In this document: positions 7,587 to 16,683 of the stretch, one piece after another | Layout of the letters: each line of letters opens with the position of its first letter | Position numbering within the stretch: position 1 is the first letter of the stretch | Source: a virus | Length of the DNA stretch: 64,000 bases | Strand: one strand, 5' to 3' | Virus record (IMG/VR): IMGVR_UViG_3300018080_000099 | Location: 1-64,000 of that record | Translations under genes and position numbers: made by a program | Notes under the pieces: generated by a model | Seen by the model: the letters and a program-made list of their open reading frames with translations, nothing else | Database searches by the model: none | What the model was told of the DNA's origin: nothing

Positions 7587-8156
7587 ATGAAAATCTTTGT
7601 TGACGTGGACACACAGGGAGACTTCGTCAATCCTGACGGAGCACTTGCAGTGCCAAATGCCGAAACCATCCGGCCCATTCTCGCCAACCTGACAAAGCTG
7701 GCGAAGGACCAAGACATTCCCATCATCAAAACGATGGACGAGCATGATGGTTCGGAACCTGAAATGTCGTGCAATGGTGGCCCTTTCCCTCTCCACTGTA
7801 TGGAAGGTACCGAGGGACAGGCGAGCATCATCGAAACCGGAACCAAGAAGGCAAAGATATTCACCAAGAAGTGTTACAATGTCTTTGACGAGAAGCTTGG
7901 GAATCCGTACATTGCCAACTGGCTCAGGGATAACAAAGTCACGGAAGCATGGGTGTACGGACTTGTCGGTAACATCTGTGTGGAAGCGGCAGTCATGGGC
8001 TTGGTAGGACATGGCATTAAGACTTTCGTCTTTGAGAATGCTGTGGTATGGATGGACTTGGATGAAGGCATCTTCGTGAAGGGGCCTGACAATAAGGAAC
8101 AGTCTGTTGCCAGAATGAGAAAGGCAGGCGCAATCTTCGCACAAGCGAGACTATAA
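7587..8156 (+). CDS. pncA: nicotinamidase / isochorismatase-family hydrolase (PncA-like)
   Basis: VDxQxDF N-terminal motif (KIFVDVDTQGDFV), conserved Lys and catalytic Cys context (GLVGNICVEAAV). Confidence 0.7.
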   Translation: MKIFVDVDTQGDFVNPDGALAVPNAETIRPILANLTKLAKDQDIPIIKTMDEHDGSEPEMSCNGGPFPLHCMEGTEGQASIIETGTKKAKIFTKKCYNVFDEKLGNPYIANWLRDNKVTEAWVYGLVGNICVEAAVMGLVGHGIKTFVFENAVVWMDLDEGIFVKGPDNKEQSVARMRKAGAIFAQARL

Positions 8157-8166
8157 AGGACGAATA

Positions 8167-9006
8167 ATGGAAATCGACGGTAAGGTAGTAGCGGAACGTG
8201 CCCGTGAGATACTGAAGGAGTACGTTAAAGAAAGCGGGATTCGCAGTCTCGTCATTGGAGTTTCAGGTGGAGTGGATTCGGCAGTGTGTTGTGCATTGGC
8301 TTATCCAGTTTGCATAGAGCTTGGCATCCCTCTCTTGGGAATCAGCATCCCGATTGACTCCAATAAGCAGGACGAAATCCAAAGAGCCAAGCTTGTTGGT
8401 GAGTCACTCTGTACTAAGTTCCAAGAGATTGACAAGACGGCAATGTATAAGCTGACTTTGGGCGACATTGCAGACAGAGACAAAACAATCCTTGCCGACA
8501 ACCACGCAGCTAGAGTACGTCGAGGGAACATCAAAGCCCGAATGCGAATGATAGAGCTGTACGACGCGGCTCAAGCCACGGGCGGTATGGTTCTGTCAAC
8601 TGACAACCTGACGGAGTACTTGTTAGGCTTCTGGACTCTCCACGGCGATGTGGGCGACTTCGGAATGATTCAAGAACTGTGGAAGATGGAAGTCTATCAA
8701 CTCGCTACATACCTTGCCAAGGAATCTGAAGCATCTAATCCCGTTGGAACCTCAGCAATGGTGAGATGTGCTCAGGCAACCCCGACTGACGGACTGGGTG
8801 TGAGTGAAAGCGACCTTGAACAACTCGGTGCCGAAAGCTACGAGAAGGTCGACGACATTCTGAACTTCCATACCATCATCGGTTACAGGATGCCTGAAAA
8901 GGAAAATTGTCCTGTCATCCAAAGGCACAAAGCATCACGCTACAAAAGAGACAACCCGTTCAACATTAAGCGTAGTATGCTTTTGGATGAGGAGGACGAT
9001 GAATGA
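8167..9006 (+). CDS. nadE: NH3-dependent NAD+ synthetase NadE
   Basis: PP-loop SGGVDS (GVSGGVDSAV), NAD synthetase signature regions; ATGA overlap with next gene. Confidence 0.8.
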   Translation: MEIDGKVVAERAREILKEYVKESGIRSLVIGVSGGVDSAVCCALAYPVCIELGIPLLGISIPIDSNKQDEIQRAKLVGESLCTKFQEIDKTAMYKLTLGDIADRDKTILADNHAARVRRGNIKARMRMIELYDAAQATGGMVLSTDNLTEYLLGFWTLHGDVGDFGMIQELWKMEVYQLATYLAKESEASNPVGTSAMVRCAQATPTDGLGVSESDLEQLGAESYEKVDDILNFHTIIGYRMPEKENCPVIQRHKASRYKRDNPFNIKRSMLLDEEDDE

Positions 9007-9653
9007 AACTAGGTATCTTCGGTGGAGCATTTGACCCTCCACACAAAGTCCACTGGGGAATTGTCAATCAGCTCTTGGACAATAAGCATCTTGACAAAAT
9101 CATTGTGATGCCATCTTTCCAGAAGATGGGTAAGGACACATGGGCTACTCCTGAGCAACGGTTAGACATGTGCCATAAATGCTTTGCTGAGTTTACTCCT
9201 GAAGTCATTGTCAGTGATTGGGAAATCCGTAACCAAACCGAAGGACATGCTCTCGAAACTTACCGGCACGTCGTGGAAGATGAAAAAGTCAAGGCAATTT
9301 TCAATGCTACCGAGGAACCAGATGTTTACTTCATTATTGGTGGTGACTGTGCTAGAAACATTGAGAAGTGGTGGCACTACGATGAACTCAAGCACGAAAT
9401 GATGTTTTGTGTTTTTGACAGGCCGAATCACACAGTAACCAATATTACTCCCGGCAGAGGATGTATTCACATTCCATACTACAACAGCAAAGTCTATGAT
9501 GATGTTTCATCTTCCAAAGTCCGATACCAGCTTGCTCGTGGTTTGGATTCAAGCTTTGAAGCAAATACTCATCCCGCTGTCCGAAAGTACATTCGGGATA
9601 ACAACCTTTATCGTCAGCCTGAGCTAGGCGAGGCTAAGTACTTAAGAGGATAA
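9003..9653 (+). CDS. nadD: nicotinate/nicotinamide mononucleotide adenylyltransferase (NadD/NMNAT family)
   Basis: cytidylyltransferase (H/T)xGH motif GGAFDPPHKVH; size ~216 aa. Confidence 0.7.
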   Translation: MKLGIFGGAFDPPHKVHWGIVNQLLDNKHLDKIIVMPSFQKMGKDTWATPEQRLDMCHKCFAEFTPEVIVSDWEIRNQTEGHALETYRHVVEDEKVKAIFNATEEPDVYFIIGGDCARNIEKWWHYDELKHEMMFCVFDRPNHTVTNITPGRGCIHIPYYNSKVYDDVSSSKVRYQLARGLDSSFEANTHPAVRKYIRDNNLYRQPELGEAKYLRG

Positions 9654-9657
9654 TACT

Positions 9658-14927: not shown

Positions 14928-14957
14928 CAACTGAAATTCGGAATAGACATACATGGA

Positions 14958-15299
14958 GTGTCTGATACTAAAGTCCTGTTCTTTTCTAAATTCAGTCAGA
15001 GACTGATAGCCAATGGACACGAAGTCCATATCATAACCGGCTCAATGGAGACTGACGAGATTAAGGAACATCTCAGAGAGCTTGGTATCGCATGGACGCA
15101 CTTCTTCAGTGTATCGGATTACTTGATAGCTCAGGGAGAGCATGTCACTTGGAGTGACGAAGAAAACCCGTGGTTCGAGGAAAAGGCTTGGCTCGGAACA
15201 AAAGGAATGTACTGTAAAGAACAAGGCATTGACATGCACATTGACGATTCAGAAACTTATGGTGCCTTCTTTGAAACCTTATATGTGAGGGTGATATGA
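14958..15299 (+). CDS. hypothetical protein (GTG start per ORF track)
   Basis: ORF track; no confident domain. Confidence 0.4.
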   Translation: MSDTKVLFFSKFSQRLIANGHEVHIITGSMETDEIKEHLRELGIAWTHFFSVSDYLIAQGEHVTWSDEENPWFEEKAWLGTKGMYCKEQGIDMHIDDSETYGAFFETLYVRVI

Positions 15300-15514
15300 G
15301 TCGCAATGTTTTTATCGGTCTGATGTGTGCAGTGATTTGGATTGTCTGTGGGATTATCAGCGTTCCACTGTATGCCATTCACGAAGGCGAAATAACAATC
15401 GGAACAGCAATCTTCATGGTGTTGTTCGGACCTATAGGACTGATTATCAATGTGATATGCATAATCCACCAAACCGGATTCTTTGACATGAAACTGATGG
15501 AGTTCAAGAAATGA
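15296..15514 (+). CDS. small membrane protein (2 TM)
   Basis: ATGA overlap; hydrophobic helices. Confidence 0.45.
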   Translation: MSRNVFIGLMCAVIWIVCGIISVPLYAIHEGEITIGTAIFMVLFGPIGLIINVICIIHQTGFFDMKLMEFKK

Positions 15515-16683
15515 TTATTAAAAGCCGTCTGAGTCAGGACTTGTACAAGCTGTCGATGCTTCAGGTGTTCTTCTTTCGCTTCCCTCATGCACTCGCAGAG
15601 TATCGGTTTAAATGCCGTACCACGGGTGTCAATCTTCTGGAGTTCCGAAAAGAGATAGAAGAAGAAATCGACCACCTCTGCTCGTTGAAATACACAATAG
15701 ACGAGTTGGACTATCTCTATGGGCTCCGATGGATAACAGGAGCATTCGTGGACTTTCTGGAGGACTTCACTCTCAAACGTAGGTACGTCCACGTTGGAGA
15801 GAAGAACGGCGAGCTTGACATCCACATTGATGGTCCGCTGATGGGAGCTTCACCATTTGAAATCTTCCTGCTGAAAATCGTGCAGGAAGTCTACCAGCGC
15901 AATGTACATCCGCAAGTCATTCCTATCTTGGAACAGGGCAGAATCAATCTTCAGGCCAAGGTCGAAGCTTTCAATGCCTTCGTGAAAGAAACCGGAATCA
16001 AGCCTGTCGTTATTGACTTCGGCGGACGGAGAGCCTTCTCGACCGCATGGCATGAGCTGGTTGTCAAGAACCTAGCTGAGAACGAAATCATTGCTGGTAC
16101 AAGTGATGTTGACCTTGCACGAAGGCTTCGTATCACTCCCATCGGAACATTCGCCCACGAGTTTGTCCAGAGCTTCCAAGGACTTGACGTTTGCCCGGTG
16201 ATGGAGAGTCAGGCAGAAGCTTTCCAGACATGGGCTGACATCTATCGTGGAGACTTGGGAATTGCCCTGAGCGATACTCTGGGTGATGCAAAGTTCCTGA
16301 TTGACTTTGACATGTACTTTGCCAAGTTGTTTGATGGTGTCCGGCATGATAGTGGTTGTCCGTTTGGCTGGGCCGACATGATGATTAACCACTACAAAGT
16401 TTTCAACATCGACCCCATGACTAAGACGCTTGTGTTCAGTGATGGACTGGACTTTAACAGAATGTTTGAGCTAGTCCGGTCATATCACGGACAGGCGAAG
16501 CTTGCATTCGGAATCGGCACATGGTTGACAAACGACCTCGGTGTTCCTGCACTTCAGAATGTTATCAAGCAAATCAGTTGTAATGGGAACCCGACTGCCA
16601 AACTCAGCAATGACCCCGGCAAGACGATGTGTGAGGACGAGAATCATATCAACTATCTGAGAAGCAGGCTGGCTGAACTATGA
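15511..16683 (+). CDS. pncB: nicotinate phosphoribosyltransferase PncB
   Basis: LYKLSMLQ...AEYRFKCR, GTSDVDLARRL, GTFAHEF, GIALSDTLG, RHDSGCPFGW, KTLVFSDGLDF, FGIGTWLTND, CNGNPTAKLSNDPGKT: colinear with E. coli PncB motifs. Confidence 0.85.
   Translation: MIIKSRLSQDLYKLSMLQVFFFRFPHALAEYRFKCRTTGVNLLEFRKEIEEEIDHLCSLKYTIDELDYLYGLRWITGAFVDFLEDFTLKRRYVHVGEKNGELDIHIDGPLMGASPFEIFLLKIVQEVYQRNVHPQVIPILEQGRINLQAKVEAFNAFVKETGIKPVVIDFGGRRAFSTAWHELVVKNLAENEIIAGTSDVDLARRLRITPIGTFAHEFVQSFQGLDVCPVMESQAEAFQTWADIYRGDLGIALSDTLGDAKFLIDFDMYFAKLFDGVRHDSGCPFGWADMMINHYKVFNIDPMTKTLVFSDGLDFNRMFELVRSYHGQAKLAFGIGTWLTNDLGVPALQNVIKQISCNGNPTAKLSNDPGKTMCEDENHINYLRSRLAEL

Follow-up and report, generated by a model that had tools for sequence, protein, structure and literature searches.

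A predicted Preiss-Handler NAD+ salvage module in a jumbo-phage genome, with a major vault protein homolog among its genes

Introduction

What would a phage gain from carrying its own genes for every enzymatic step from nicotinamide to NAD+? The question is raised by positions 7587-16683 of IMG/VR virus record IMGVR_UViG_3300018080_000099, within the 64,000-nucleotide stretch analyzed here (positions 1 to 64,000 of that record, hereafter the window), where genes for PncA, NadE, NadD and PncB lie together with genes for a Nudix hydrolase, a NADAR-domain protein and a major vault protein (MVP) homolog. Our reading, to which we assign a probability of about 0.72, is that these genes would form a functional, phage-borne module for deamidated (Preiss-Handler) NAD+ salvage in a jumbo phage of ~264 kb, maintaining or rebuilding the NAD+ pool of the infected cell.

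Bacteria commonly abort phage infection by depleting NAD+, and three phage routes for rebuilding it, the NAD+ reconstitution pathways NARP1, NARP2 and NARP3, have been experimentally proven. NARP1 and NARP2 were defined in 2024, and phage NAD+ reconstitution was found to defeat NADase defenses (bioRxiv 10.1101/2024.02.11.579819; PMC13464706); NARP3, the combination of PnuC and NadR, was defined in 2026 (PMC13464706). Neither of these papers mentions PncA, PncB, NadE or the Preiss-Handler pathway as a phage counter-defense, and Iyer et al. 2022 described only the NadV/NadM/NadR route in viruses. A genome analysis published in 2024 reported jumbo phages with complete salvage or Preiss-Handler pathways, including the pncB-nadD-nadE genes of Kuafu_71 (PMC11662467). 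A first-pass annotation of the window had proposed that its cluster may represent a third, undescribed NAD+ strategy, which cannot be sustained given those jumbo-phage clusters and the assignment of the third NARP to PnuC and NadR. The cluster is neither a new phage feature nor unique to this genome, and its kind of pathway has already been described computationally. It is a compact, intact example, complete with an ADP-ribose (ADPR) pyrophosphatase, of a four-enzyme deamidated route that is widespread in large phages and for which we found no experimental test; therein lies its main interest, and the odd insertion of an MVP homolog is secondary.

Four enzymes cover all steps from nicotinamide to NAD+

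The ORFs (open reading frames) previously assigned to PncA, NadE, NadD, PncB, the Nudix hydrolase and the DNA ligase LigA are all present on the + strand, and profile searches agree with the four pathway assignments, with catalytic motifs kept. On this profile and residue evidence, all enzymatic steps from nicotinamide to NAD+ are encoded. The first gene, PncA (7587-8156, 189 aa), is a predicted nicotinamidase that would convert nicotinamide to nicotinate. It matches the Pfam Isochorismatase family (2.6e-19), its closest solved relatives are nicotinamidases (1ILW, 5.7e-14), and both the catalytic triad (D8/K94/C131) and the zinc ligands (D51/H53/H70) are conserved. The assignment rests on these residues and on context because the NCBIfam equivalog score, 41 against a cut-off of 174, falls far short. 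PncB (15511-16683, 390 aa), the predicted nicotinate phosphoribosyltransferase, would join nicotinate to phosphoribosyl pyrophosphate (PRPP), with ATP, yielding nicotinate mononucleotide (NaMN). It carries the NAPRTase_N and NAPRTase domains, scores 439.5 bits against PRK05321 (cut-off 379) and 290 bits against 1YIR, and has a GTFAHE motif holding His216, which is invariant in alignment A2.

The two remaining enzymes are encoded between PncA and the Nudix gene. NadD (9003-9653, 216 aa) is a predicted nicotinate-mononucleotide adenylyltransferase with a CTP_transf_like domain (6.5e-17) and the motifs GGAFDPPHKVH, in which V replaces the glycine of HxGH, and SSSKVR; it scores 110.6 bits against TIGR00482, slightly under the equivalog cut-off of 112.45. 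NadE (8167-9006, 279 aa), the predicted NAD+ synthetase that would convert nicotinate adenine dinucleotide (NaAD) to NAD+, matches NAD_synthase (4.3e-40) and clears TIGR00552 (130.8 bits, cut-off 63.65), with the PP-loop SGGVDS at residues 33-38. Profile searches found no glutaminase domain in this single-domain protein, which should therefore be NH3-dependent.

These last two steps might also run in the order of Francisella, with NadE acting as a synthetase of nicotinamide mononucleotide (NMN) that converts NaMN to NMN and the adenylyltransferase then taking NMN to NAD+. The closest solved relative of NadE is 3FIU (72.1 bits), which we take to be the Francisella tularensis enzyme characterized as an NMN synthetase, and the NadD score just under its equivalog cut-off would suit this order as well. 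The canonical archaeal NadE 2E18 scores essentially the same, however (71.5 bits), and the PDB relatives of the adenylyltransferase are all of the NadD type with none of the NadM type, so that we regard the Francisella order as unlikely and the conventional one, NadD before NadE, as the working assignment.

A Nudix hydrolase gene (9658-10239, 193 aa) does follow NadD, as the first-pass annotation had it, and is of the ADP-ribose/ADP-sugar pyrophosphatase type. The protein matches the NUDIX family (1e-12) with a perfect Nudix box at residue 87; its closest PDB match is the ADP-sugar pyrophosphatase NUDT5 (5.7e-11), followed by NudE and the Thermus ADPRase, and NudE is its top NCBIfam match. The DNA ligase encoded upstream at 2046-3995 (LigA, 649 aa) is likewise NAD+-dependent as proposed, its TIGR00575 score of 459.7 bits exceeding the cut-off of 444.45 and its domains comprising adenylation, OB, HhH and BRCT. 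The four pathway enzymes, the Nudix protein and LigA are all full length with intact motifs.

Gene packing and a repeated promoter-like motif suggest two transcription units

The spacings from PncA through NadE and NadD to the Nudix gene are 10 nt, -4 nt (the NadD start overlaps the NadE stop) and 4 nt, and the Nudix gene meets the MVP gene in an ATGA overlap. Further downstream, each consecutive pair among orf113, orf72, PncB and orf116 overlaps by 4 nt. The exact sequence TTGACA-N17-TATATT occurs 29 times in the window against an expectation of 0.01, at 1705, 1974, 13277, 17039 and 18447 and at 24 sites within 50.6-63.7 kb, on both strands; its spacer is partly conserved, approximately TTGACAAnTCAGCTnnAATGnnGTATATT. 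To judge from its sequence, this motif is probably a phage promoter for the host sigma-70 RNA polymerase. The + strand element at 1974-2002 lies upstream of LigA and is the likely start of a unit extending through PncA-NadE-NadD-Nudix-MVP, and that at 13277-13305, also on the + strand and just before an ATG at 13323, would begin a second. No perfect + strand copy occurs between 1974 and 13277, or between 13277 and the next element at 17039-17067. The layout thus suggests one unit of LigA…PncA-NadE-NadD-Nudix-MVP and another of orf301-NADAR(frameshifted)-orf113-orf72-PncB-orf116. Its copies are also packed very closely at 50-64 kb, a region where the genes are small.

Relationship to described phage and bacterial NAD+ pathways

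The cluster differs from NARP1 and NARP2, whose defining proteins were not found among the ORFs scanned (433-17462 and the larger ORFs up to 39.8 kb). Within that scope, which left small ORFs elsewhere unscanned, neither the PRPS-like Adps nor the NAMPT-like Namat of NARP1 was found, nor did the scanned ORFs match the PnuC and NadR of NARP3; the 72-aa orf72 (15296-15514) is far too short for PnuC. NARP1 and NARP3 are likewise phage-encoded means of restoring NAD+, and they differ in substrate, starting from ADP-ribose pyrophosphate (ADPR-PP) and from imported nicotinamide riboside, respectively.

NARP2, represented by NadV and NatV of Vibrio phage KVP40, also rebuilds NAD+ from nicotinamide and PRPP. 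It does so with two enzymes through the amidated intermediate NMN, whereas the window encodes four enzymes that would pass through nicotinate, NaMN and NaAD. The phosphoribosyltransferase of the window has NAPRTase_N and not NAMPT_N, and NadE is present although the amidated route needs none. A Preiss-Handler pathway fits the cluster, and NadV-type salvage does not, because NadE, which serves only the deamidated route, is present and NAMPT_N is absent. The two are alike in their link to a Nudix hydrolase, which is encoded by the next gene after NadD in the window; in NatV of KVP40, an ADPR pyrophosphatase Nudix domain is fused to the adenylyltransferase. NARP2 has been tested experimentally.

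The nearest published counterparts are the NAD-jumbo phages of the 2024 genome analysis, which likewise exceed 200 kb and in which pncB, nadD and nadE are clustered and pncA was noted as well, giving a complete route to NAD+ along with NAD+ consumers such as ligase (PMC11662467). The genome sampled by the window falls within the definition used there (a genome >200 kb and a complete NAD+ synthesis pathway), its viral status being taken from the indirect evidence given below. Those phages are gut phages predicted to infect Bacteroidota, and the window phage apparently belongs to another lineage and environment. Its cluster explicitly includes PncA and an ADPR-type Nudix gene and appears split into two units by MVP; no experiments on the Preiss-Handler route were part of that paper. 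Compared with bacterial pncA-pncB-nadD-nadE, the same four families are present with conserved catalytic residues, but the window genes are phage-encoded, are arranged in operon-like fashion behind putative phage promoters, and are linked to genes for a Nudix ADPRase, NADAR and MVP. The window PncB is at most ~50% identical to named bacterial proteins. It belongs to a clade of unnamed metagenomic sequences with 55-72% identity, and since named bacterial PncBs reach only ~50%, this placement argues against a recent capture of PncB from a host.

The module recurs in many phages

IMG/VR contains 480 stretches that encode PncB relatives, and we surveyed the best 80 loci with 10 kb flanks, which dereplicated to 71 clusters (individual loci are given L numbers below). 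Of the 80, 56 had PncA near PncB, 50 had NadE, 27 had NadD and 22 had a Nudix gene. All four enzymes fell within 10 kb in 22 of the 80 loci and in 17 of the 71 after dereplication, about a quarter, and a Nudix gene was also present in eight of these 17 clusters; with the same set carried by that many independent viral loci, the four-gene combination is not novel. In anchor sets of the same size (80 each), PncA was near MVP 8 times and near Thg1 16 times, and NadE 3 and 13 times. Measured against these sets, the co-location of PncA and NadE with PncB is not due to chance.

The order PncA-NadE-NadD-Nudix…PncB is conserved at 50-65% protein identity in L011, L177, L178 and L097. The genes of L011, a contig of 253 kb with an MVP 63% identical to that of the window, run PncA-NadE-x-NadD-Nudix-MVP-x-NADAR…PncB. 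In L178/L097 and L177, PncA-NadE-NadD-Nudix leads on to PncB without an intervening MVP, the gap from Nudix to PncB being only 2.3 kb in L178/L097, and L256 and L257 (MVP 56-59% identical) keep MVP-(NADAR)-orf113-PncB. Farther afield, L138 and L168 have contiguous PncA-PncB-NadD-NadE operons in which PncB and NadD were confirmed by Pfam. Among GenBank phages, the order is PncA-PncB-NadE-NadD in the gut phage contig MT835470 and PncB-NadE…PncA in the 735 kb phage LR756501; in Agrobacterium phage Atu_ph07, PncB lies close to a PncA-like gene and an ADPR pyrophosphatase gene.

Linkage to LigA has a narrower distribution. The first-pass annotation had joined the cluster to the nearby NAD+-dependent ligase, and this linkage is conserved within the window lineage (window, L011, L177 and L178), but LigA lies within 10 kb of PncB in just 6 of the 80 viral loci, and we rejected it as a general partner of the pathway.

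Several observations on these related loci stand on their own. Between L011 (7522-9293) and the window (8167-9653), NadE is 29% and NadD 34% identical, whereas identity is 51-65% for PncA, Nudix, MVP and PncB on either side, which suggests that the NadE/NadD slot either was replaced by distant homologs or has evolved much faster. In L011 (1463-4446), two inserted ORFs separate the adenylation/OB part of the NAD+-dependent ligase from its HhH/BRCT part, with an HNH gene immediately upstream of the first of the two parts. A second recurrent type of viral cluster, found in L098, L103, L112, L119, L139 and L095 of IMG/VR, has, in this order, PncA, a phosphoribosyltransferase of ~490 aa with a weakly NAMPT_N-like N-terminus, a Macro domain and NadE, sometimes together with NADAR; its phosphoribosyltransferase is not typical of either PncB or NadV. 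In L245 (7915-9366), a single ORF beside PncA-PncB-NadE comprises Nudix, NrtR winged-helix and cytidylyltransferase-like domains by Pfam, and it may be a phage version of an ADPR-responsive NAD regulator joined to an adenylyltransferase. L246 (6041-7462) probably encodes the same fusion, the Pfam search having covered L245 only. In the 462 kb phage LR756500 (L007), PncB at 27811-32595 neighbors an ADP-ribosylglycohydrolase, ClpP and a nucleoside 2-deoxyribosyltransferase-like protein.

Proposed mechanism and purpose of the module

The sequence comparisons establish which enzymes the genes encode, that the catalytic motifs are intact, that the packing is operon-like and that the module recurs across many phages; from this we infer the enzyme activities, the order of substrates, the use of host PRPP, the timing of expression and any effect on defense systems. 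In the proposed pathway, PncA would hydrolyze nicotinamide to nicotinate, PncB would combine nicotinate with host PRPP and ATP to form NaMN, NadD would convert NaMN and ATP to NaAD, and NadE would complete NAD+ from NaAD, NH3 and ATP. The adjacent Nudix enzyme would cleave ADP-ribose to AMP and ribose-5-phosphate, from which the host PRPP synthetase could remake PRPP. Both products that TIR, SIR2 and SEFIR NADases release from NAD+, nicotinamide and ADPR, would in this way return to NAD+. The selective benefit would be resistance to NAD+ depletion by TIR, SIR2 or SEFIR-type defenses, with the supply of consumers such as LigA as a second benefit.

The same enzymes could serve another purpose, as a general auxiliary metabolic cassette that boosts NAD+ for LigA and redox metabolism and has no part in counter-defense. 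We hold this to be possible, while giving it well under an even chance. It is the reading adopted in the 2024 analysis of NAD-jumbo phages (PMC11662467), and it draws on the conserved LigA linkage in the window lineage and on the prospect that LigA shares a transcription unit with PncA-NadE-NadD. The scarcity of LigA near PncB across the viral survey speaks against it, as does the presence of Nudix in 22 of the 80 PncB loci and of Macro or NADAR in other PncA-phosphoribosyltransferase-NadE clusters, which points to handling of NAD+ breakdown products; moreover, the closest tested analogue, NARP2, is a counter-defense system. Recovery from NAD+ cleavage is favored over simple supply because genes for handling ADPR (Nudix, Macro, NADAR and the L245 fusion) recur with the module. 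By analogy with NARP2 and given this recurrent linkage, an anti-defense role is plausible, and resistance to NADase defenses is most likely the main benefit.

Several points weigh against a working salvage module with this purpose. Our literature searches found no biochemical or genetic experiment on a phage Preiss-Handler route. Four enzymes cost more ATP and more coding than any of NARP1-3, and most bacteria already encode the route, so that a benefit must come from dosage or timing. The NadD score is slightly below its equivalog cut-off, and a preference for NaMN over NMN cannot be read from its sequence. The frameshift in the NADAR gene and the CTG start of orf113, described below, suggest some decay, or sequencing error, in the second unit. 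Finally, the window contains no structural phage genes.

Evidence that the cluster belongs to a jumbo phage

The last two of these points would also suit the view that the cluster plays no part in infection and is either passenger DNA in decay or host DNA wrongly binned as viral. We consider that highly improbable. None of the four enzymes, Nudix or LigA is truncated, and their motifs are intact; relatives at 50-65% identity share the synteny; the PncB clade is separate from named bacteria; and the window has 29 phage-type promoter copies, matches to PHROG families and relatives in IMG/VR. The phage identity of the genome is indicated by several indirect lines. The window ORFs are short, same-strand and densely packed; several match PHROG families, including a Thg1-like protein at 9.7e-93; IMG/VR lists relatives as viral, among them IMGVR_UViG_3300017917_002466 (253,664 bp); and contig size and gene architecture, the promoter motifs included, are consistent with a phage. 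Metagenomic contigs of 263,805 and 264,037 bp carry proteins identical to the window PncB and MVP, which sets the genome at ~264 kb, and another locus, L004, is 100% identical to the window across 21 kb. A megablast search with the 9.1 kb region returned zero nucleotide matches among GenBank phages. The tRNA scan of the window found none, and neither an NAD+ riboswitch nor any other Rfam family was detected in the cluster or elsewhere in the window.

A major vault protein homolog inserted between the two halves of the cluster

Between the Nudix and NADAR genes lies a 3 kb gene that the first-pass annotation had overlooked and that is the most unusual in the interval. It encodes an MVP homolog of 994 aa (10236-13220, + strand) matching MVP_shoulder (3.9e-24) and Vault_3 (5.1e-08). 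The longest ORF begins at a GTG at 10224, and the ATG at 10236 overlaps the TGA of the Nudix gene. By phmmer, residues 481-938 align to MVP 341-784. An AlphaFold2 model, used only for secondary structure and local fold matching, has an overall pLDDT (predicted local distance difference test) of 49, with a confident shoulder and 120-residue helix; its strands fall at 170-230 and 610-650, followed by an alpha/beta domain (670-790) and a helix (795-914). In Foldseek, vault MVPs make up the top 12 matches (2e-18 to 2e-14), with other SPFH proteins at ~8e-7. The predicted protein thus has the features of the family, namely beta-sandwich repeats, an SPFH shoulder and a long cap helix, in common with known prokaryotic and viral MVPs. 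In the window lineage the protein gains an N-terminal extension of ~165 aa, for which no family match was found, and its gene is set in an NAD+ cluster. MVP relatives number more than 5,000 among metagenomic proteins; they are also encoded on 276 viral contigs of IMG/VR and by the huge phages LR756500 and LR756501. The MVP of LR756500 (3930-9077) is flanked by a protein with a DFP (coenzyme A pathway) domain, and a weak Macro-domain protein is nearby.

Could this protein be a working part of the NAD+ system? The shoulder of human MVP binds NAD+, ADP and ADPR, and the vault houses NAD+-consuming enzymes (PMC12280208; bioRxiv 10.64898/2026.05.01.722283). A preprint on prokaryotic and viral MVP homologs makes no mention of NAD+ or gene neighborhoods (bioRxiv 10.1101/2023.11.10.566534). 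By analogy, a phage MVP cage or sponge might store NAD+, hide it from host NADases or sequester ADPR-derived signals alongside the salvage enzymes, which would for the first time place a prokaryotic or viral vault protein in a functional setting. The coupling of its ATG to the Nudix stop, the ligand binding of the human shoulder and the persistence of MVP-(NADAR)-orf113-PncB in four lineage members (56-63% MVP identity) are consistent with such a cage, vault-like in form, or with a binding protein, either of which would store or shield NAD+ or ADPR in concert with the salvage enzymes, as are the NadE, NAMPT, NADAR or Macro genes that lie within 10 kb of some other phage MVPs.

We nevertheless judge this idea very unlikely. 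A first hand tally had found NadE, NAMPT, NADAR or Macro near MVP in several contigs. When 80 MVP-anchored loci were compared with 80 Thg1-anchored loci, NAD+/ADPR genes accompanied 28 and 19, respectively, and after dereplication to 59 and 38 loci the counts were 18/59 and 14/38, with Thg1 an imperfectly neutral control that is itself often near NAD clusters. There was no enrichment, and a general linkage of MVP to NAD+ or ADPR was rejected. MVP was found in none of the 80 PncB-anchored loci. Of the human NAD+-pocket residues R504, K506, R507, P508, H509, R511, L517, D521 and F522, only K506 was matched in the phmmer alignment; conservation of these nine positions is variable among animals, according to the source paper. 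The NAD cluster of the close relatives L177 and L178 is the same but lacks MVP, for which reason MVP is a lineage-specific insertion. It offers a side lead on what the vault proteins of prokaryotes and viruses do.

The NADAR gene and small reading frames of the second unit

The annotation of a NADAR gene at 14231-14927 (+ strand) was right as to the domain, but the gene is not a single open frame. Its N-terminal 32 codons (MLPITHFKDAHEFLSNF…) begin at 14231 and stop at 14327, so that the N-terminal part (14231-14326) and the remainder (14292-14927) lie in different frames, separated by a 1-nt frameshift at a run of five C (14317-14321). Removal of one C from this run yields …GLAYPTVEHAYQAAK…, matching intact NADARs, and a 231-aa protein that spans profile positions 9-162 of 163 (79.6 bits). 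The same frameshift is present in L004, which is not independent evidence because L004 is 100% identical to the window. The run may mean that the gene is truly a pseudogene, that +1 slippage occurs at this site or that the assembly is in error, and with the frame broken a contribution of NADAR in this genome is doubtful.

Apart from PncB, the remaining ORFs of this unit, all on the + strand, lack clear assignments; neither they nor MVP and NADAR gave anything significant against PADLOC defense profiles. The ORF at 13296-14228 encodes 310 aa at its longest, or 301 aa from the ATG at 13323 that is the gene-call start in L004. It had no significant Pfam, NCBIfam or PADLOC match, and tblastn (E <= 1e-5) found no homolog in the corresponding slot of L011 or L097. 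The conserved orf113 (14931-15299; 122 aa if the CTG at 14931 is the start) always lies directly upstream of PncB in the window lineage, with homologs at 50-59% identity in L011, L097, L256 and L257; these relatives start with ATG where the window has CTG. No Pfam, NCBIfam, PADLOC or PDB-profile match was obtained for orf113, and a HAD-like reading of its motifs GIDIHG, HIITGS and DDS was confirmed by no search. The strongly hydrophobic orf72, with its 4-nt overlaps on both sides, is always coupled upstream of PncB in the lineage in the same way as orf113, and has a weak, sub-threshold match to the ECF transporter S component (0.0067). Overlapping the PncB stop, orf116 (16680-17030, 116 aa) is the last gene before the promoter-like site at 17039-17067.

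Other features of the window

Between about 40,000 and 50,000, the window has negative GC skew and its longer ORFs lie on the minus strand, among them a DNA methyltransferase gene (48202-49065); + strand ORFs return at ~50 kb, where the promoter motifs grow dense. Downstream of the NAD cluster, 19381-30976 holds a gene group of RNA-repair-like appearance, comprising genes for an RlaP-like protein (19381-20013), an AAA ATPase (21914-23461), a nucleoside 2-deoxyribosyltransferase-like protein (23765-24259), a Thg1-like protein (25554-26330) and a MoxR-like AAA_5 ATPase with a VWA/DUF2201 partner (28344-30976). Thg1 also often lies near NAD clusters in other viral contigs.

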